In this document: positions 3,729 through 62,403 of the stretch, piece by piece
Layout: each line of letters opens with the position of its first letter
Position numbering within the stretch: position 1 is the first letter of the stretch
Source of the DNA: Parcubacteria group bacterium
Lineage (GTDB): Bacteria > Patescibacteriota > Minisyncoccia > Phycocordibacterales > Phycocordibacteraceae
Direction of reading: 5' to 3'
Length of the DNA stretch: 64,000 nucleotides
NCBI GenBank assembly: GCA_028286605.1
Contig: JAQBRE010000002.1
Location: forward strand, 399,687-463,686
Notes under the pieces: model-generated
Database searches by the model: none
Told to the model about the DNA's origin: nothing
What the model saw: the letters and a program-made list of their open reading frames with translations, nothing else
Program-made: the position numbers and the translations under genes

Positions 3729-6434
3729 ATGCCCCCTTTCAAAAACTTCACCACAAAAGCAAAAGAAGCTATAAAGCGAGCCCACGAGCTCGCTATTGAG
3801 CGTGGGCAGAATCACGTCAGTCCGCTTCACCTTTTAACAGCACTTATCCATCAGGAAGAAAGTCTGGTCTTTTCAGTGCTCGACCGCATGGATATCGATA
3901 CGATGGAACTTTCCGATACGCTGCTCGAATCCCTTGAATCTCCGGACCCCACCTCAGTCCTTTCTCCTTCATTCAACCTGTATCTCACGCCGGAACTCGC
4001 ACAGGCGCTTGAATCGGCAGGGAAGGTCGCTGCACGCATGAATGACTCCTATATAGGAACGGAGCATCTGTTCCTTGCAGTTATTGAGAATCCAGGACCA
4101 GCGGATGATATCCTCACGCGTTTCAAGATAGATGAAGAGACCGTCGAAGCAGTTCTTAAGGAACTCAAGACTTCGAAGGACGGACAGGTTGCCGAACCGA
4201 AGCGGTTCCGCGCGCTTTCCAAATACACGCGCAATCTTACGAAGCTCGCGGCAGACAATGCGCTTGATCCGGTTATCGGCCGTGATCAGGAAATAAATCG
4301 CGTGATTCAGATACTCTCGCGCCGCACGAAGAACAATCCGGTGCTTATCGGCGAAGCAGGCGTGGGTAAGACAGCGATCGCAGAAGGTCTCGCGCTGCGC
4401 CTTTCAACCGGCGAAGTTCCAGAATCCCTGAAGGGCAAGGAACTCCTTTCGCTTGACCTCGGCATGATGATCGCCGGCACGAAGTACCGTGGCGAATTCG
4501 AAGAGCGTATGAAGGCTGTGATGAAGGAAGTAGAGAAGTCCGATGGCAAGGTCATCGTCTTCGTTGATGAGCTGCACACGCTCGTAGGCGCCGGCGCCGC
4601 GGAAGGATCCCTTGATGCGACGAACATGCTTAAGCCGGCGCTCGCACGCGGCGAGATTCGCATGATCGGCGCGACCACGCTTAAGGAATATCAGCAGCAT
4701 ATCGAAAAGGATGCTGCGCTTACGCGCCGCTTCCAGCCGGTATACGTGAATGAACCGAATGAAGAAGACGCTATCGCGATTCTTCGCGGCCTACGCGACA
4801 AGTACGAGCTCTTCCATGGCGTCCGCATCACGGACGGCGCTATCGTTTCCGCTGTGGAGCTTTCTAGTCGTTACATTTCAGACCGTTTCCTTCCAGACAA
4901 AGCTATCGACCTTGTGGACGAAGCCGCTTCCGGCCTTCGCATCGCGCTTGAAAATAAGCCACCGCAGCTTGAAGAGACAGACCGAAAGATCCGCCGCCTT
5001 GAAATCGAACGACAGGCTCTTAAGAAGGATGATGAAACGCTTTCCGAACAGGCTCCGGCGAACACGAAGGAGATTCGCGAGCGCGTGAAGGCTATCGATG
5101 CGGAAATCGCAGATTTCCGCGAGAAGACGGCCGAGCTCGAGCTTAAGTGGAAGAACGAAAAAGAAGTCCTGCAGGACATCCGCGCACTCAAGGCAGAACT
5201 CGATCGCCTGCGTGTCGCTGCTGATAACGCCGAAGCCACTGCAGATCTGGGCACTGCCGCAGAAATCCGCTACGGCCGTATGCCGCACTTGCAGAAGGAA
5301 CTCGAAACAAAGACGAAGCGCCTCAAGACGCTTCAGAAGTCGCGTCGCATCCTGCATGAGGAAGTTACCGAGCATGAAATTGCCGGTGTCGTCTCACGCT
5401 GGACCGGTATCCCGGTTGCAAAGATGATCGAGGAAGAAGCAGCGAAGCTCGCGCGCATGGAACTCGACCTTACGACAGCGGTCATAGGACAGAACGCCGC
5501 GATCAAGATCGTTACGGACGCAGTGAAGCGCTCGCGCGTGGGTATCGCGGACCCGAATCGTCCGATCGGTTCGTTCATGTTCCTTGGCCCGACCGGCGTC
5601 GGAAAGACGGAACTCTCGAAGCGTCTCGCTGAATTCATGTTCAATGATAAGGATGCGCTGGTTCGCGTCGACATGTCTGAATTCATGGAACGCCACTCGG
5701 TCGCTAAGCTCATCGGTGCGCCGCCAGGATATGTGGGCTACGACGAAGCAGGTTCGCTCACCGAACGCATCCGTCATCGCCCGTATTCAGTCGTCCTCTT
5801 CGATGAAATCGAGAAAGCGCATCCTGAAGTATTCAACATCCTTCTGCAGGTTCTCGATTCCGGCCATCTTACCGACGGGAAGGGTCGCAAGGTGAACTTC
5901 AAGAACACCATCATCATCCTTACGTCGAACATCGGCGCGGAATACATGGACCGCATGGCGAACATCGGATTCGGCAGCGCAGAGCACGGCGAAGCCACCG
6001 CGTACGAACAGATGAAGGAGAAGGTCATGGGCTCGCTCAAGGAACAGTTCCGTCCTGAATTCCTGAACCGTCTTGATGACATCATTATCTTCGATCCGCT
6101 TTCCAAGGAAGCGCTCACGGAAATCGTGGAGAGCCAGGTCGTCGAAGTGGTCTCCCGCCTGAACGGCAAGCGCATCACGCTCGCCATTACTCCCGAGGTA
6201 CGTGCATGGCTGGCGGAAAAGGGATACAACCCGCAATACGGCGCTCGTCCGCTTAAGCGCACGATTCAGGACAAGATCCTTACGCCGATCGCGTCGCTTA
6301 TGGTGGGGCAGGGAATCATGGAAGGCGGCACCGTAACGGTATCGCTCAAGAATGGCGAACTGCACTTCGATGTTAAGAAAGGTTTGACGAAGACTCGTCG
6401 TACCAAGGCGCAGGCGGCCGCAACGGCCGCCTAG
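3729..6434 (+). CDS. clpB: ATP-dependent chaperone ClpB
   Basis: 901 aa. Clp_N repeats, two AAA+ modules ([15 protein letters not shown]; [15 protein letters not shown]), a long coiled-coil M-domain between NBD1 and NBD2, and the C-terminal ClpB_D2-small domain. Confidence 0.93.
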
Positions 6435-54895: not shown

Positions 54896-57595
54896 ATGAA
54901 GAAAACATCAAGCAAATCTGAAGACGCACACTCGCAATTCACTGGTGAAAACTGGATAGAAGTGAAAGGTGCACGTACGCACAATTTGAAGAACCTCTCG
55001 GTCAAGCTGCCGCGCGGGGCTATGACCGTGCTCACCGGTTTGTCCGGCTCCGGTAAATCTTCGCTCGCTTTTGATACGATTTTCGCCGAAGGGCAGCGCC
55101 GTTATGTGGAATCACTTTCCGCGTACGCGCGCCAGTTCCTGAACCAGATGCAGAAGCCGGATGTTGATGAGATCACCGGTCTTTCCCCCGCTATTTCCAT
55201 AGATCAGAAGAGTCGTTCCAATAACCCGCGTTCAACGGTGGCAACGGTGACGGAAATCTACGATTACCTGCGCGTGCTCTACGCGCGTGCGGGCCAGCCA
55301 TACTGCACGCAGCATGATGTGCCAATTTCCCGCCTTTCGAAGGAAGAGATGATGCGTTTGGTGTGGAATCATGTGTATGCGAAGACAGGAGACACAAAAG
55401 CAGCGGATGGAGAAGATGCTGCAGCCGAGAAAGCACGCGTCATGGGCGTTGAGTTCGATCGTAGCACTGTAACAATTTACGCGCCGGTGGTGGTGGGCCG
55501 TAAGGGCGAGTACTACCAGCTTCTCTACGATCTTTTGAGCAAAGGTTTCGAGCGCGTGGTGATAAATGGAAAGGAACAGTCGCTTCGTGAGAAGGCGGTG
55601 CTCGACAGGAACAAGCGTCACGAGATTGATGCCGTCGTGGATAACATCTTCGTATCTGAATTCGTGCGCACGCCGGACGCTGCACGTGAGCGCCTCTCCG
55701 AGGCGCTCGAACTCGCCCTCAAAGAGGCAGACGGTCTCGTGAAGATCAAGCATGCTGACGGCACGATGGAAACGCTTTCTTCCAAGTTTATCTGTCCTGA
55801 AGACGGCATGTCCTTCCCTGAGGTCGAGCCGCGTTTGTTCTCATTCAATAGCCCGTATGGTGCCTGCCCTGCCTGTAACGGCTTGGGTACGAAGTCTCTG
55901 TTTTCAAGCGAAGTGTGTCCGGTCTGCGAAGGAAAGCGTCTGCGCCCTGAAGCGCTTCGCGTGTATCTTGCGCAGAAGAAAAACACGAAGCAGCACCCGC
56001 TCGGCAATAACATCGTGGACTTCACGAACTTCTCTATACGAGATGCGAAAGACTTCATGGATAACCTGCACATGTCTGACATGCGTATGGAAATCGCGAA
56101 GCCGATCATCCGCGAAATCGTCGCGCGTCTTGATTTCATGCTTAATGTCGGCCTGGACTACCTCACGCTTAATCGCTCTGCAGCGACGCTTTCCGGCGGC
56201 GAGTCCCAGCGTATCCGCCTTGCTTCCCAGCTCGGTACAGGCCTCGTGGGCGCGCTGTATGTGCTTGATGAGCCAACTATCGGCCTGCACCAGCGCGACA
56301 ATGATCGCCTCATTAAAACTATGCTCACGCTTAAGGAGCTCGGCAACACTATTCTTGTTGTGGAGCATGACGAAGACACTATTTATGCCGCAGACTACAT
56401 CGTAGATATCGGTCCTGGCGCCGGGGTACATGGTGGCAAAGTGGTCGCTGAAGGCTGGCTTGATGATCTTCTTACCGCGCCGACGAACGAATCCGGTTCG
56501 CTCACCCTTTCATACCTGCGCGAAGAGACGCGCATCGAACTTCCGGAGGAACGTCGTACGAGCGAGAAAGGCTGGATCAAAGTGAAGGGTGCTTCGTTAC
56601 ATAATCTGGTGAATCAGAATATTGATATTCCGCTTGGAAAGCTGGTTGGCATCACCGGTGTTTCCGGTTCCGGAAAGTCCACGTTCCTGTATGACATCCT
56701 GCACAAGAACGTTGCGGCACGCTTCGCGCGCCGTGAAGTGAAGCTTGAGCACGTTTCAAGTATGACGGGCACCGAATACCTTGCGCGCGTGGTACTTATT
56801 GATCAGTCCGCGATCGGTCGCACACCACGCTCGAACCCGGCAACATACACCGGTTCCTTCACGCATATCCGTGACCTCTTCGCTTCAACAAGCGAAGCAC
56901 GTGCGCGCGGCTGGAAGCCAGGGCGATTCTCCTTCAATGTTCCGGGCGGCCGTTGCGAAGCCTGCCAAGGAAACGGCATGATCGCCGTAGAGATGCACTT
57001 CCTTCCAACCGTGTACGTAACGTGCGACGTCTGCGAAGGAAAGCGATTCATGAAAGAGACGCTCGAGGTTACGTATCGCGGCAAGAGTATCTATGACGTG
57101 TTGCAGATGACCGTTGAAGATGCCGCGAAGTTCTTCGAGGACATTCCAAGTATCGGCGAACGTCTTGAAACGCTCAAATCAACGGGTCTTGAATATCTTA
57201 CGCTCGGCCAGTCTGCAACGACACTTTCCGGCGGGGAAGCGCAGCGAGTGAAGATCGCTGCAGAACTCTATCGGCCGACCACGATGAAGACGCTCTACCT
57301 TCTTGATGAGCCGACCGTCGGCCTCCACTACGAAGACGTACGCAAGCTCATCGAGATCCTTCAGGAACTCGTTCTTCGCGGCAATACTGTCGTGGTTATC
57401 GAGCACAATCTGGACCTCGTGAAGTCCTGCGATTACCTCATAGACTTCGGTCCTGAAGGCGGCATCAAGGGCGGCAAGATTATCGCGAAGGGAACTCCAG
57501 AGGAAGTCGCTGAAAACGAGAACTCATTCACCGGCGAATATCTCGCGAAGATCCTCAAGAAGCACGGCAAGAAAAAGAAAGAGTCTAAGGCGTAA
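54896..57595 (+). CDS. uvrA: Excinuclease ABC subunit A
   Basis: Tandem ABC modules with Zn-finger insertions (CPACNGLG; CEACQGNG), GLSGSGKSSLAFDT, LSGGESQRIRLA, GVSGSGKST and LSGGEAQRVKIA. Confidence 0.92.
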   Translation: MKKTSSKSEDAHSQFTGENWIEVKGARTHNLKNLSVKLPRGAMTVLTGLSGSGKSSLAFDTIFAEGQRRYVESLSAYARQFLNQMQKPDVDEITGLSPAISIDQKSRSNNPRSTVATVTEIYDYLRVLYARAGQPYCTQHDVPISRLSKEEMMRLVWNHVYAKTGDTKAADGEDAAAEKARVMGVEFDRSTVTIYAPVVVGRKGEYYQLLYDLLSKGFERVVINGKEQSLREKAVLDRNKRHEIDAVVDNIFVSEFVRTPDAARERLSEALELALKEADGLVKIKHADGTMETLSSKFICPEDGMSFPEVEPRLFSFNSPYGACPACNGLGTKSLFSSEVCPVCEGKRLRPEALRVYLAQKKNTKQHPLGNNIVDFTNFSIRDAKDFMDNLHMSDMRMEIAKPIIREIVARLDFMLNVGLDYLTLNRSAATLSGGESQRIRLASQLGTGLVGALYVLDEPTIGLHQRDNDRLIKTMLTLKELGNTILVVEHDEDTIYAADYIVDIGPGAGVHGGKVVAEGWLDDLLTAPTNESGSLTLSYLREETRIELPEERRTSEKGWIKVKGASLHNLVNQNIDIPLGKLVGITGVSGSGKSTFLYDILHKNVAARFARREVKLEHVSSMTGTEYLARVVLIDQSAIGRTPRSNPATYTGSFTHIRDLFASTSEARARGWKPGRFSFNVPGGRCEACQGNGMIAVEMHFLPTVYVTCDVCEGKRFMKETLEVTYRGKSIYDVLQMTVEDAAKFFEDIPSIGERLETLKSTGLEYLTLGQSATTLSGGEAQRVKIAAELYRPTTMKTLYLLDEPTVGLHYEDVRKLIEILQELVLRGNTVVVIEHNLDLVKSCDYLIDFGPEGGIKGGKIIAKGTPEEVAENENSFTGEYLAKILKKHGKKKKESKA

Positions 57596-57939: not shown

Positions 57940-59193
57940 ATGCAGCGCGAAGACCTAAAAAAATTTGAGCTTCCTGACGTTCCTGGCGTCTATCTGTTCA
58001 CGCAGGGCAAAGGTAAGTCCAAAAAGATTCTATACGTGGGGAAGGCGACTTCCCTGCGTGATCGCGTGCGCTCCTATTTCGATATCGAGCTCATCGCGAC
58101 CCGCGGTCCGCGTATCGTAGATATGGTCACGCAGGCAGACGGCCTGATGCATGAGACCACGCCAACCGTGCTGGAGGCGCTCGTGCGCGAAGCCGCACTT
58201 ATTCGTGAATATGATCCGCCGGCGAACACGCTGGGCAAAGACGGGAAGTCATTCCTGTATGCCGTCATTACAGACGAAGAGATTCCACGCGTTCTTGCGA
58301 TACGCGGCAAGGATATTGATTTTGAAAACATGCGTGCGAACGGTTTCAAGCTGAAGCATACTTACGGGCCGTTTCCTTCCGGTTATCAGCTGCGCGAAGC
58401 ACTGCGTCTGATCCGTCGCATCTTCCCGTTCTATGACACGCCGAAGCCTGTGGGCGAAGGGAATAAGCATCTGCAAGCGAAGGTTGAGTTCAACCGGCAG
58501 ATAGGTCAGTATCCGCGTGATATGAGTCAGAGCCAATACATGCGCTCCATACGCAACGTTGGCTATTTCCTTTCCGGCCGCGTGAAAGCACTGCGCACCG
58601 TCCTTACGAAAGAAATGAAAGACTCTGCAAAGAAGGAAGAATTCGAAGAGGCGGGCATAATTCGCAGACAGCTTTTCGCGCTGGATCATGTGCAGGATGT
58701 TTCTCTTATTAAAGATGAACGAAACGAAGACAAAGAGGCGCCGCGCATCGAAGCGTATGACACGGCGCACCTTTCTGGTACCAATGCTATCGGCGTTATG
58801 ACGGTGGTAGAGAACGGCCTCATCATGAAGCGCGAATATCGCACGTTTAAGATTCAGGGTCGTGGTGGCAAGTCCACGAATGATGACATCGCGTCGCTAA
58901 AAGAGATCCTCACACGCCGTTTGGGGCATCCAGAATGGCCGCTACCGCGCGCAATCGTCGTAGACGGCGGGAAGACGCACAAGAAGGCTGCAGAAGAAGT
59001 CTTGAAGCAGTATGAAATAGGTATTCCTGTGGCTGCGGTGGTTAAGGATGAGAAGCACCGTCCACGCGAAGTGATCGGCGCGATGCGCGCCGGCATCACC
59101 GAAGCAGACGCAGTCCTTGCTAATAGCGAAGCGCATCGATTCTCCATAACGCTCCACCGCAAGGCCCGCAACAAGACCATGCGTTCGGCATAA
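57940..59193 (+). CDS. uvrC: Short UvrC-like excinuclease (GIY-YIG + RNase H-like endonuclease domain; lacks the UVR and HhH regions)
   Basis: GIY-YIG: LPDVPGVYLFTQGKGKSKKILYVGKATSLRDRVRSYF. C-terminal UvrC endonuclease-domain-like AIVVDGGKTHKKAA...GIPVAAVVKDEKH. It has only 417 aa. Confidence 0.65.
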   Translation: MQREDLKKFELPDVPGVYLFTQGKGKSKKILYVGKATSLRDRVRSYFDIELIATRGPRIVDMVTQADGLMHETTPTVLEALVREAALIREYDPPANTLGKDGKSFLYAVITDEEIPRVLAIRGKDIDFENMRANGFKLKHTYGPFPSGYQLREALRLIRRIFPFYDTPKPVGEGNKHLQAKVEFNRQIGQYPRDMSQSQYMRSIRNVGYFLSGRVKALRTVLTKEMKDSAKKEEFEEAGIIRRQLFALDHVQDVSLIKDERNEDKEAPRIEAYDTAHLSGTNAIGVMTVVENGLIMKREYRTFKIQGRGGKSTNDDIASLKEILTRRLGHPEWPLPRAIVVDGGKTHKKAAEEVLKQYEIGIPVAAVVKDEKHRPREVIGAMRAGITEADAVLANSEAHRFSITLHRKARNKTMRSA

Positions 59194-59344
59194 TTGAAAT
59201 TTATTTAGAGAGGTATATAATTGACTCATACGTTTTCAAACGTATACCTGACGACAGAAAATTGAATCGGCTTGCTGCGGACACTAATCAAACGGTGTAC
59301 TAATGGGCGAATTGGGGAAATCCCTTGCCGTCGCCCCAGGTAAA

Positions 59345-59380
59345 ATAAACCATCCTCTTCGGGGGATGGTTTATTTATTT
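59345..59380. terminator. Bidirectional terminator after the uvrC-like gene and the convergent 59371-59835 gene. The region may also mark the 3' end of a small RNA (59220-59345).
   Basis: aaaccatcc-tcttcggg-ggatggttt + tttatttc. Upstream lie ttgact (-35-like) and the palindrome atacgttt-tc-aaacgtat. Confidence 0.55.
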
Positions 59381-59835
59381 CTTGCAGTTTTAAAATGAAT
59401 CGAACAAATTTCTGCAGAGTCGTGTTTTTCATCTAATAATATCCGAAGCTGAGGATAGTCTTTTGCTGAATAATCCTTAGTATAGAAATGACCGACAGGT
59501 GTTCGTGTTCTGTCTTCTTCATACAGTTCGTAATCTGTAATAGTCTCCTGGAGATGTTCAAGTGCAAACAATATTCGCCCGAACACCTCTTCCTCAGGAT
59601 GGCGCTTCATAAGATCAACTTTCCGCTCCTCAACGAAATGCTTTAATGATTTGCGACTGATATATACCCGTGTTCCTTTACGTGGATGTTTTTCATGCCT
59701 TGAGCCACGAATATCAAATATTCGCAGTAATTCTAGTGGACGCTCAATTAACTCGCCGTATTCCATATCAAAATACTCGCGTGCAAGTGCTTTGATTGTT
59801 CCGATTCTTCTTGGAATGCTGGCAGGTTCATTCAT
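59371..59835 (-). CDS. Hypothetical protein (154 aa) in an AT-rich segment
   Basis: ORF only. About 40% GC against a ~53% background. Confidence 0.45.
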   Translation of the reverse strand: MNEPASIPRRIGTIKALAREYFDMEYGELIERPLELLRIFDIRGSRHEKHPRKGTRVYISRKSLKHFVEERKVDLMKRHPEEEVFGRILFALEHLQETITDYELYEEDRTRTPVGHFYTKDYSAKDYPQLRILLDEKHDSAEICSIHFKTARNK

Positions 59836-59951
59836 CTATCAAGTATGTGTAATGAAGCAAACACAAGAGGCATTTTTAAATTGGATAAGGGCTAATTCAC
59901 TTTATCTTTTCTTCATCTCAAGCTTGAAATAAGAGCGTGCGCACCGGCTCT

Positions 59952-60262
59952 TGACAATAGAACGTTAGTGGGGTATTTTAAAAACGGTTCGGACGTTCGG
60001 CGAGAAATTGCCGCTGGCCCTCCAGGGAGGGCGGACGCGCCTTCCGCTCAACGCAGCTCGATGCTGTATGATGATCTTTTCGCCATTCGGGGAATGCCAA
60101 TGACTTGGACTCAGGTCGAGGCGTAAGGGAAGAACCCCATTAGAACAATCGCACTCTCAGGGGAGAACGAACTTCCAATGGCACCCTTACGTCTAATCTT
60201 TTGAGGCAGGAGCGCTAATAAATACAGCGGGGGCGGTACGATTTCATTTATCGTGCCGCCCC
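59952..60262 (+). ncRNA. Candidate ~275-nt structured RNA or leader upstream of ddl, bounded by a sigma70-like promoter and a strong intrinsic terminator. Class unknown.
   Basis: ttgaca -17 nt- tatttt at 59952-59980. A 360-nt segment free of ORFs >=60 aa. Terminator cgggggcggtacgat-ttcattt-atcgtgccgccc + tttcctatttcc at 60228-60274. It contains a 21-codon uORF (60061-60126) that lacks an SD. Confidence 0.35.
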
Positions 60263-60302
60263 TTTCCTATTTCCATATTCTTGCCTGCTATACTCTTCAC
60301 AT

Positions 60303-61286
60303 ATGCGTGGCACCGTTGTTGGAGTATTGCGTGGCGGTCCGTCGCGCGAGCATGAGGTTTCGCTTGCGAGCGGGCATGCGATTATTGCGAACCTTCCGAA
60401 AGATCGCTTCACCGTTCGTGACATTTATATAGACAAGCAGGGAGCCTGGCACGAACGTGGCCGTCCTATCACGCCGGATCGCGCACTGCATTCCGTAGAT
60501 GTCGTCGTTATCGGTTTGCATGGCGAATACGGAGAAGACGGCGAGGTGCAGAAACTTTTGGAGAAATACGGTGTGCCATACACCGGCTCAGGTTCATTCG
60601 CTTCGTTCGTAGCGATGCATAAGGTGATGTCTAAGGAGAAGGCGAAAGATGCGGGCCTGCTCACTCCTGAGTATCGATACATCGAAGAGAGCACGAACAA
60701 CATCGAAATGGAAAAGATGCTGCGCGATGTGGTGCGAACCTTCCCGCAGCCCGTGGTGGTGAAGCCGACGCGCTGGGGCTCATCAGTGGGCGTTACGCTC
60801 ACCACGGGCTATGCACCGCTCCACACGGCTGTTACAGGCCTTCTTAGGCAAGGTTCCGGCGGTGTACTGGTGGAGGAATACATAAAAGGAACTGAGGCAA
60901 CCGCGGGCGTCGTGGAAGGGCTTCGAGGCGAAGCCCTGTATGCGCTTCCGCCCATCGAAATCCTCCCACCTGAATCAGACTTCTTCTCGTATGACGCCAA
61001 GTATTCGGGCTCCTCGAAAGAGATCGTCCCGGGCCGCTTCACGAAACAGGTGACGGATGAGCTGATGCGCCAGGCGCGCCTCATGCATGAGGCGCTCGAG
61101 CTGCGCCACTACTCACGCTCTGATTTCATCATCACGCCCAAAGGCATCTATTATCTGGAGACTAATTCGCTTCCGGGCCTCACCGGCGAATCGCTCCTGC
61201 CTAAGTCCCTGGCTGCGGTGGGCGTGTCCTTCGGGGAATTCTTATCCCATATAATTGACCTTGCACGGACAGGAAAGAAACGGTAA
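60303..61286 (+). CDS. ddl: D-alanine--D-alanine ligase
   Basis: VLRGGPSREHEVSLASG, VIGLHGEYGEDGEVQKLLE, the ATP-grasp motifs, and the C-terminal YLETNSLPGLT. Confidence 0.9.
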   Translation: MRGTVVGVLRGGPSREHEVSLASGHAIIANLPKDRFTVRDIYIDKQGAWHERGRPITPDRALHSVDVVVIGLHGEYGEDGEVQKLLEKYGVPYTGSGSFASFVAMHKVMSKEKAKDAGLLTPEYRYIEESTNNIEMEKMLRDVVRTFPQPVVVKPTRWGSSVGVTLTTGYAPLHTAVTGLLRQGSGGVLVEEYIKGTEATAGVVEGLRGEALYALPPIEILPPESDFFSYDAKYSGSSKEIVPGRFTKQVTDELMRQARLMHEALELRHYSRSDFIITPKGIYYLETNSLPGLTGESLLPKSLAAVGVSFGEFLSHIIDLARTGKKR

Positions 61287-61338: not shown

Positions 61339-61411
61339 GGGCCGTTAGCTCAGTTGGTAGAGCGCTTCATTTGCAATGAAGATGTCGCAGGTTCGAATCC
61401 TGTACGGTCCA
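61339..61411 (+). tRNA. tRNA-Ala (anticodon UGC) with the G3:U70 identity pair
   Basis: GGGCCGTTAGCTCAGTTGGTAGAGCGCTTCATTTGCAATGAAGATGTCGCAGGTTCGAATCCTGTACGGTCCA. Anticodon loop TTTGCAA and T-arm GCAGG-TTCGAAT-CCTGT. Confidence 0.9.
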
Positions 61412-61470
61412 CCCCATAAAAACTCAATTTGTCACGGCTGCCCCTGCACCAGATATGACGCATTACTCCC

Positions 61471-62403
61471 ATGTTGTTGGATAACGAACTTGTAACACAT
61501 GGGGTAGGCTATATCCGAGATTTTAAGGTAATTGACCAAGACTCAGATATAGAACTTATTCCCGGTCTGCAGATACTCGGACCAGCTGCAAGAGACGATA
61601 TTAATGAGTATCTAACTGAACTAGAGTCAACAACAGGTATATCCCGTCCTCAAAACGGTCGCTTCATACTCTATACACTTGATAAAAAGCGCTCATTGGA
61701 ATGGCCATTTGAGTTCCAGCAAATGCTCTGGGATTTTATCCTTGTTCTAAGAATTTTTGCTGGCGGCACAGCCCATTCTTATGGCGTCATATACTATGAT
61801 CTCGATTCATCCCCCGTAACCTATTATCCTGGTTATCTGGGTGATGCGGATTCCGTCAGATCCAGTAGCGCAAATATTAAAATGGAGGATTTGCCGCAAC
61901 TGGCTCAGACATATGAGCGCCTATCCGCAATAAAACCACTAATAGACATAAGTTCAGAATCGTTTTCACGATTGAGAAACGCTCTCCGGTTTTTTGATCA
62001 GGCCTACACAACAAACTGGTATTTGATGAAGATTGTTTTACTTTTTATTTGTCTAGAAAGTCTATTTTCTGATCGAGACGACAAGACTGATATATCGTAT
62101 AAGGTTCGGCTTCGAGCCACACGCTTTCTTACTGACGATGTGGAAGAGAGAAAAGATATATTCGAAAATCTTAAAATCGCATACGACTTTAGAAGCTCTA
62201 TTCTCCATGGTGACAATTTTGCTCGCAAGCAAGAACGGAAACTTAAGAATGGAGAATCTTGGGATTACTATCCAAGTTTTCTAGAAAACATTGCAAGACG
62301 CATCTTGCTGAAGATGCTGAGTGATCAGGAACTTTACAACCACTTTTCCAGGAAGACTACAGACAAAGAGGATAGCAACTTCTTTTCAAATCTTGTCCTG
62401 TAA
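61471..62403 (+). CDS. Abi-like protein with a C-terminal HEPN-type Rx4H motif (putative abortive-infection / defense nuclease), in an AT-rich islet next to tRNA-Ala
   Basis: 310 aa at ~40% GC. C-terminal helical region LRNALRFFDQAY...LESLFSD...YDFRSSILHGDNF contains R-x4-H. Predicted cytoplasmic. Confidence 0.5.
   Translation: MLLDNELVTHGVGYIRDFKVIDQDSDIELIPGLQILGPAARDDINEYLTELESTTGISRPQNGRFILYTLDKKRSLEWPFEFQQMLWDFILVLRIFAGGTAHSYGVIYYDLDSSPVTYYPGYLGDADSVRSSSANIKMEDLPQLAQTYERLSAIKPLIDISSESFSRLRNALRFFDQAYTTNWYLMKIVLLFICLESLFSDRDDKTDISYKVRLRATRFLTDDVEERKDIFENLKIAYDFRSSILHGDNFARKQERKLKNGESWDYYPSFLENIARRILLKMLSDQELYNHFSRKTTDKEDSNFFSNLVL

Follow-up and report, generated by a model that had tools for sequence, protein, structure and literature searches.

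What does the gap immediately upstream of ddl encode in this 64,000-nucleotide stretch of Parcubacteria DNA (hereafter the window)? An earlier reading made without database searches (the sequence-only reading) had described a near-consensus promoter followed by some 275 nt with no sizeable open reading frame (ORF), closed by a hairpin with a U-tract, and had proposed either a large cis-regulatory leader of ddl or a small RNA (sRNA). We call this stretch unit 2. Our analysis points, with moderate confidence, to a stand-alone, lineage-restricted and dispensable small RNA gene (59986-60275, + strand) of a family not in Rfam and apart from the ddl mRNA. A promoter and a terminator of its own, a covarying helix and G-U pairs that fit the + strand favour the sRNA half of the earlier proposal; the leader half fails on the leaderless promoter that ddl appears to possess and on a terminator that is not displaced in constrained folds. 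Transcription of unit 2, and any target that it may have, we infer from the sequence.

Genomes of the candidate phyla radiation (CPR) are tiny and compact, and CPR/Patescibacteria are uncultured. The closest genome relatives of the window are Parcubacteria, Paceibacterota and Kaiserbacteria metagenome-assembled genomes. For comparison we used 177 related loci (about 0.9 Mb, designated by L numbers below).

Anatomy of unit 2

Unit 2 is delimited by the following features.

59951-60275, + strand: unit 2, between ORF154 and ddl
59951-59979, + strand: σ70-type promoter with −35 TTGACA (59951-59956), a 17-nt spacer and −10 TATTTT (59974-59979), 10 of 12 matches
about 59985-59987, + strand: predicted transcription start of unit 2
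59986-60275, + strand: predicted primary transcript, spanning about 290 nt from promoter to terminator
60229-60275, + strand: intrinsic terminator, a 14-bp stem (9 G-C pairs, 60229-60263) with a 7-nt loop, then TTTCCTATTTCC

The promoter and the GC-rich hairpin with its U-tract are thus present as the sequence-only reading had described them. The scarcity of coding potential is borne out as well: no ORF of at least 60 aa lies inside the unit, and between 59980 and 60300 the longest + strand ORFs have 52 aa (GTG start at 59968, within the promoter) and 31 aa, and those on the − strand 40 aa and 58 aa, the 58-aa one overlapping the ddl start. Since no ATG follows the −10 box, unit 2 is not a leaderless protein gene. 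Its GC content of 52-55% resembles that of core genes and is not island-like. Compared with shuffled sequences, the unit folds with z = −4.45 on the + strand and −2.85 on the − strand, and both its minimum free energy (MFE) and its centroid structures are multibranched. Terminator-like sites show a mild enrichment (6 versus 2.5 expected).

These single-sequence signals are modest, so the case for unit 2 rests on comparison with relatives. Homologous units have a promoter and a terminator at equivalent relative places, together with a common covarying helix. The promoters that open them read TTGGCA-17-TATCTT in L169 and begin with TTGACA in L002 and L170 unit 2, and the terminator stem flank and T tract are conserved between unit 2 and L169.

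A conserved core in eight lineages

The core of the unit was compared in eight lineages, namely the window, L169, L002, L170, L001, L008, L084 and L082. The same sequence order recurs in all of them: a G-rich run like a Shine-Dalgarno (SD) sequence, an AUG 5-9 nt 3' of it, a short ORF (the mini-ORF) and a helix. In the window these elements are placed as follows.

60087-60108, + strand: small hairpin (60087-91 with 60104-08) whose 5' arm is formed by the G-rich SD-like run, with the AUGs at 60094 and 60100 in the loop
60100-60126, + strand: mini-ORF AUG ACU UGG ACU CAG GUC GAG GCG UAA (MTWTQVEA), with its stop codon within the 5' arm of the core helix
60120-60193, + strand: core hairpin with base helix GGCGUAAGGG (60120-29) paired with CCCUUACGUC (60184-93), then the conserved AAGANCCCCA; the distal 54 nt are hypervariable

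The core helix measures 9-10 bp at its base, and the mini-ORF stop codon falls within its 5' arm or next to it. The enclosed insert varies from 17 to 76 nt and is unrelated between lineages, while both arms of about 10 nt are kept. In a hand-anchored register across the eight lineages, 65 of 70 cells are paired, changes on both sides of a pair occur at 4 positions, and two lineages show a paired deletion. When loop-trimmed cores were aligned with MAFFT, 85.9% of the cells were paired, as against 78.6 ± 2.2 in shuffled alignments (2 of 500 reach this value), and the covariation score was 0.361 against 0.222 in shuffles (again reached by 2 of 500). This alignment holds 5 pairs changed on both sides, and slid-register controls gave 33-56%. 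RNAalifold, applied to the untrimmed sequences of the three clearest homologs, independently recovers the same helix. Of the paired cells, eight are G-U wobbles, and read on the opposite strand they would not pair; the wobbles fit the + strand only, so selection acts on the + strand RNA.

The small hairpin is predicted by RNAalifold from the natural sequences of the window, L002 and L169, with two of its five pairs changed on both sides. The segment between the core helix and the terminator is not conserved, and the module of G-run/AUG hairpin, mini-ORF and helix is the only part of unit 2 kept by selection. A loose hairpin descriptor, GCG-N2-3-GG ... CC-N-CGY, was dropped as non-specific, with about 0.5 matches per kb everywhere.

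Distribution of unit 2 and the uvrC-ddl slot

Unit 2 stands in a gene order, uvrC-ddl-tRNA-Ala, that is kept across relatives.

54896-57595, + strand: uvrA
57940-59193, + strand: uvrC
59194-59385, + strand: unit 1, a small promoter/terminator unit
59371-59835, − strand: ORF154
60303-61286, + strand: ddl, with its ATG at 60303
61339-61413, + strand: tRNA-Ala(UGC), 3' of ddl

Searches with nhmmer and blastn found homology to unit 2 only in L169 (nhmmer E = 6e-10), L002 and L170-172, confined to the core plus the terminator/ddl-promoter flank. Variant cores were found in L001, L008, L084 and L082. All these units, homologs and variants, lie between uvrC and ddl. The 64-kb window holds no second copy. 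In six close relatives uvrC abuts ddl and unit 2 is missing: L161 (Ddl 89%), L165 (89%), L175 (88%), L166 (86%), L176 (83%) and L174 (81%). The region covered in these six genomes was ±2.5 kb, so a copy of unit 2 may exist elsewhere in them.

Other relatives fill the slot differently. Homologs of unit 1 and ORF154 are present without unit 2 in L162-164 (Ddl 88%); in L167/L168 (Ddl 86%) a 98-aa protein ORF (2201-2497, + strand) takes the place of an RNA-like unit, so the slot can receive cargo of different kinds; and L173 (Ddl 88%) and L001 (82%) have a non-coding unit of different appearance. Scans of genomes and metagenomes turned up no carrier of a unit 2 homolog closer than L169 (Ddl 84%). 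In a neighbour-joining tree of UvrC and Ddl the carriers are interspersed with non-carriers, a pattern that suggests an old element with repeated clean losses and hence a dispensable one.

A survey of 42 distinct uvrC-ddl gaps of 200-800 nt extended these observations. A promoter match opens 16 of the 42, against 2.7% of random 75-nt windows, and in 11 of those 16 the −35 TTGACA overlaps the TGA stop codon of uvrC. A terminator lies within 110 nt of ddl in 29 of the 42, against a background of 5%. The gaps are mostly unrelated to each other in sequence. By these predicted signals the slot is a long-standing host to small, fast-changing and repeatedly deleted transcription units. We think it reasonably probable that unit 2 is one of several fast-evolving, dispensable units at the uvrC-ddl junction in the Parcubacteria/Paceibacterota clade. 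Such a history, in which transcription units turn over at one site and are repeatedly deleted, is a small evolutionary finding in itself.

A small RNA gene or a neutral spacer

Generic bacterial sRNA genes are intergenic, 50-400 nt long, equipped with their own σ70 promoter and Rho-independent terminator, and conserved among close relatives only. Unit 2 resembles generic trans-encoded members of this class: it is a promoter-to-terminator unit of about 290 nt without a conserved ORF, structured, strand-specific, narrowly distributed and dispensable. The marks by which such genes are recognized are found in its sequence, namely a promoter and a terminator that bracket an ORF-poor stretch and a conserved + strand structure, the latter seen in few sequences and in a partly hand-anchored alignment. 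It differs from them in that the conserved part is a helix with an SD/AUG module and not an unpaired seed. We know of no RNA chaperone context in CPR bacteria. As the most likely mechanism, the RNA would act in trans, or as a binding platform, through the core helix. Ribosome entry on the mini-ORF may transiently open this helix, so that its availability would be coupled to translation. With CPR/Patescibacteria uncultured and their genomes so small, their non-coding RNAs are almost uncharted, and unit 2 would add a candidate regulatory RNA family to bacteria whose regulation is little known; practical impact is limited, as the unit is dispensable and occurs in few uncultured lineages.

Several observations weigh against an sRNA gene. 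The lone promoter match is at chance level (3 matches seen in 2.5 kb versus 2.7 expected), and with the terminator removed the fold retains a modest signal (z = −2.26 on the + strand, −1.16 on the − strand). The G-rich run is predicted by RNAalifold to be base-paired and may be structural instead of serving as an SD sequence. The helix alignment was hand-selected and trimmed, in a register chosen by the analyst, and its few sequences are related by descent; 4 of the 9-10 helix pairs are invariant. When about 1 Mb of related loci was searched with a covariance model of the core, R1, the training members were recovered and no others. Finally, the nearest relatives lack unit 2 at the locus, as neutral junk would likewise predict.

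This last point is why a neutral, decaying spacer is the strongest rival, although we rate it as unlikely. According to this explanation only the terminator matters, by stopping upstream transcription ahead of the leaderless ddl promoter, while the promoter of unit 2 is fortuitous and the hairpin common to the relatives reflects recent ancestry. The direct abutment of uvrC and ddl in the closest relatives agrees with it, as do the extreme sequence turnover among mostly unrelated long gaps, the chance-level promoter, the modest fold outside the terminator and the failure of R1 to find further members. It does not readily account for 10-nt arms kept around 17-76 nt that are wholly replaced, with both-sided changes and a paired deletion, or for promoters placed precisely at the gap start in 16 of the 42 cases. 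The asymmetry of the G-U pairs, which favours a + strand RNA, also argues against a spacer, as does the core-like GC content of the stretch in a compact CPR genome.

Relation to ddl

If unit 2 is an sRNA gene, the same strand and the short distance to ddl still raise the question of whether it governs that gene. One further feature bears on this.

60286-60294, + strand: extended −10 element of ddl, TGCTATACT, outside unit 2, 22 nt after the terminator stem and 8 nt before the ATG

The sequence-only reading had recognized this element (as tgctatact) and placed it about 25 nt after the hairpin; the element is there, at the somewhat shorter spacing of 22 nt. It predicts a ddl mRNA that is leaderless or has a 2-nt leader. 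Every relative examined has a T(G)nTATACT box 6-9 nt 5' of the ddl ATG, even where uvrC ends 2-40 nt from ddl and no element is present. As this box lies downstream of the terminator and is conserved where the element is missing, ddl would have its own promoter and unit 2 is most probably not its leader. The arrangement recurs across the window: SD sequences are seldom seen there, and of 48 long ORFs at least 23 carry a TAnnnT box, often GCTATAAT or GCTATACT, 5-9 nt 5' of their ATG. Leaderless starts dominate the window, as for example at 2932, 12099, 16752 (− strand), 25535, 35768 (− strand), 39879, 54234 and 60303. A literature search on leaderless translation and non-coding RNAs in CPR/Parcubacteria returned nothing relevant.

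We therefore consider improbable a cis-acting leader of ddl, whether a riboswitch or an attenuator in which the Ala-terminated mini-ORF governs read-through into ddl and tRNA-Ala. The idea has its attractions: unit 2 is on the same strand and immediately 5' of ddl, its short ORF ends in GCG (Ala) and a stop codon inside a helix, a strong terminator follows, ddl uses D-Ala, and tRNA-Ala(UGC) lies 3' of ddl. The riboswitch version was rejected since a predicted promoter intervenes between element and gene; no riboswitch family matches, and most relatives do without the element. The attenuator version was rejected on the constrained folds and on the leaderless ddl promoter. When a ribosome footprint on the mini-ORF stop codon was forced to be unpaired, the terminator stayed intact in all five transcripts (the window, L169, L002, L001 and L008), and no alternative antiterminator pairing appeared in these constrained folds. 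The lack of conservation between helix and terminator also speaks against this version, and in a read-through transcript the AUG of ddl would be internal and lack an SD sequence.

Known leader-peptide attenuators (trp, his and Phe, the last represented by Phe_leader in Rfam) do share with unit 2 a short ORF that runs into a hairpin, a strong terminator and a biosynthetic gene downstream. Unit 2 differs from them in having neither an antiterminator pairing nor a run of regulatory codons, and in preceding a gene with its own, leaderless promoter. No Rfam leader family matched unit 2.

The mini-ORF and its predicted peptide

In addition to its helix, the proposed sRNA contains the mini-ORF, which is a candidate for translation on the strength of its sequence context. 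The sequence-only reading had listed a 21-codon ORF without an SD sequence. This ORF, MLYDDLFAIRGMPMTWTQVEA (60061-60126), is indeed present, but relatives retain the position of no more than the final 8 codons (60100-60126), which stand behind the G-rich SD-like run.

Could the SD-like run and AUG drive the synthesis of a functional short peptide? A micropeptide gene of this kind is scarcely probable. In its favour, the combination of SD-like run, ATG and short ORF occurs on the + strand of 18 of 39 gaps, more often than in shuffled sequences (10.2 ± 2.4) or on the reverse strand (2 of 39), and both the frame and the 8-codon length are common to the window (MTWTQVEA), L169 (MLRNSIRA) and L002 (MIWNSTKA). 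The peptides themselves, MDFVFKLRCSVR among them, are unrelated across lineages and range from 2 to 17 codons: L170 has AUG-GCG-UAG (MA), and the mini-ORFs of L001, L008, L084 and L082, which likewise enter the 5' arm of the helix, have 9-17 codons. Third codon positions vary no more freely than first and second ones. In the three 8-codon versions, codons 6 and 7 conserve their third positions and vary in the first and second, the reverse of the pattern expected from protein-coding selection. The predicted pairing of the G-run points the same way.

A similar distinction separates unit 2 from the dual-function sRNAs with a short ORF, such as SgrS/SgrT, RNAIII/hld and SR1/SR1P. The likeness lies in a structured RNA with a short ORF behind an SD-like element; the difference is that the unit 2 ORF has 2-17 codons and encodes no conserved peptide, so that any role would lie in translating into the helix and not in the product.

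The uvrC hairpin and possible origins of the unit

After its training members, model R1 scored best on a hairpin inside uvrC, with a match in each of the close relatives (E 0.007-0.26). The window copy, at about 58034-58059 (+ strand), is a perfect 11-bp stem capped by a GNRA loop, ACGUGGGGAAG-GCGA-CUUCCCUGCGU, in the part of the 5' coding region that encodes YVGKATSLR of the GIY-YIG motif. Relatives preserve this hairpin, with co-changes that are synonymous (GUA paired with CUA in L166), and its arms nearly match the core helix of unit 2. The likeness may be a coincidence or may reflect a shared binding factor. In an extended version of the sRNA hypothesis, which we regard as a long shot, the core helix would be a translation-gated decoy for a factor (protein or RNase) that binds the uvrC hairpin, so that uvrC expression would depend on translational status, and the slot would be a birthplace of regulatory RNAs in CPR. 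A ribosome on a rare SD-led mini-ORF, which may be as short as AUG-GCG-stop, would then melt a helix resembling the uvrC hairpin, in an organism that initiates mostly on leaderless mRNAs.

The R1 matches in uvrC could also be taken as a sign that unit 2 descends from a partial copy of uvrC or ddl that has since decayed, or that it is mobile-element cargo inserted at a hot spot. A hairpin in L169, GGCATCCGCAAGCGGATGCC (2398-2417), resembles a 3' coding segment of that lineage's own uvrC, GGCATCACGGAAGCGGATGCC (2091-2111), with a local score of 32 where shuffles reached at most 29; this one lineage may retain a remnant of uvrC. Protein genes occupy the slot as well, namely ORF154 in the window and L162 and the 98-aa ORF in L167. 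Decay of a uvrC or ddl copy was rejected: alignment of the window unit with the window's uvrC gave a chance-level score, and DNA profile hidden Markov models of uvrC and ddl had no match in the RNA-like units. Decay of another protein gene was set aside when tblastx of the gap against all loci gave nothing. A mobile origin found no backing in searches for phage, plasmid and viral-contig matches, which were negative, or in the single copy of the unit in the window. A duplicate or mobile origin is scarcely probable.

Comparison with known RNA families

To test for membership of a known family we ran Rfam 15 twice, once over the whole window at the gathering score and once over 59800-60350 with 4227 families, permissive filters and a limit of E ≤ 10. 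The whole window yielded four tRNAs and nothing else at the gathering score, and the permissive search of 59800-60350 gave only two terminator look-alikes (ncr1175 and a snoRNA). The Rfam check that the sequence-only reading had called for (SRP_bact, 6S, ydaO, glycine and others) therefore returned no family for unit 2. In 29 related loci (20 + 9, the 9 being homologous loci searched at E ≤ 1) the matches were to tRNAs and, in L001, to one LOOT RNA, with no consistent match in the intergenic units.

A divergent housekeeping RNA beyond the reach of the Rfam models, namely the signal recognition particle (SRP) RNA, 6S RNA, RNase P RNA or transfer-messenger RNA (tmRNA), is barely credible: although CPR RNAs are often divergent and about 275-290 nt would suit the Bacillus-type SRP RNA that the sequence-only reading had suggested, no such model matches 59800-60350 even at E ≤ 10, or the homologs, the locus is empty in the six close relatives listed above, which argues against an essential housekeeping RNA there, and the sequence is replaced between lineages. 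In particular, SRP RNA (RF00169 / RF01854) was rejected at the gathering score, at E ≤ 10 and in homologs. The segment UCAGGUC...GGGAAGAAC is faintly like SRP domain IV, and has no SRP model match. For 6S RNA (RF00013) there is no Rfam match, and the multibranched structures are not 6S-like rods. ARAGORN reported 4 tRNAs and no tmRNA in the window, and the Rfam models for tmRNA and RNase P RNA were likewise without a match.

No riboswitch class (ydaO, glycine, thiamine pyrophosphate (TPP), T-box and others) matched among the 4227 families at E ≤ 10. The TPP riboswitch (RF00059) deserves mention for a local resemblance of the core to its P4/P5 arm. L002 reads CCC-A-UGAU-UUGG-loop-CCAA-G-GCGUAAGGG-AAG and L170 contains GCGUAGGGAAG, against a TPP consensus of ...CCUGAUCUGG-loop-CCAGCGUAGGGAAG. 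The P5 hairpin is missing in L170. The GCGUAAGGG segment pairs instead with a distal CCCUUACGU. With the covariance model silent at E ≤ 10 and no CUGAGA/P2-P3 half, unit 2 is not a member of this family.

The LOOT RNA (RF03000) in L001 (Parcubacteria bacterium C7867-008) lies at 5971-6104 (+ strand), about 2 kb 3' of ddl, and scores 61.5 bits against a gathering score of 46.4. Like unit 2 it is an uncharacterized structured small RNA near ddl; the two are unrelated in sequence and structure, and LOOT RNA has no match in the window.

Unit 1 and other contents of the slot

The window carries a second small unit between uvrC and ddl.

59194-59385, + strand: unit 1, directly 3' of the uvrC stop codon, with promoter TTGAAA-16-TATAAT, 11 of 12 matches
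59343-59376: terminator of unit 1, 15 bp, which also ends ORF154 on the other strand

The predicted transcript of unit 1 is about 155 nt long and folds with z = −4.16. It has homologs in L177, where the unit lies directly 5' of ddl, and in L162-164, and its hairpin GGGCGA...UCGCCC covaries (GGACGA/UCGUCC in L177, GGAUG/CAUCC in L162). No Rfam family matched; the lone leader match was sub-threshold and is a terminator look-alike. Paralogy of units 1 and 2 was rejected, as the two show no significant similarity. The motif GGCG-N-GGGAA, common to both, is only about 3.7-fold enriched, in counts that are not independent.

Tandem pairs of promoter/terminator units with internal repeats were seen between uvrC and ddl in L170 (1782-2500) and L005 (2626-3000). 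In L170, CACAGATCATACGGAATCACG and GAAAACCGATCAGGCA recur ahead of each terminator; L005 has a duplication of the terminator and −10 box. These arrangements suggest that slot units arise or expand by local duplication.

ORF154, with a GC content of about 40%, is an accessory gene inserted between uvrC and ddl, and a homolog of 67% identity occupies the same place in L162-164. Searches of PHROGs, NCBIfam and PDB with ORF154 gave no match, and Pfam gave only a sub-threshold LAGLIDADG_3 (E = 0.023).

Directly 3' of tRNA-Ala(UGC) lies an ORF of 310 aa (61471-62403, + strand), also with a GC content of about 40%, which has only a weak PHROG match. The segment 3' of ddl and tRNA-Ala is variable in relatives, and L168 has a Shedu-type SduA_C gene there, which suggests an integration hot spot at tRNA-Ala.

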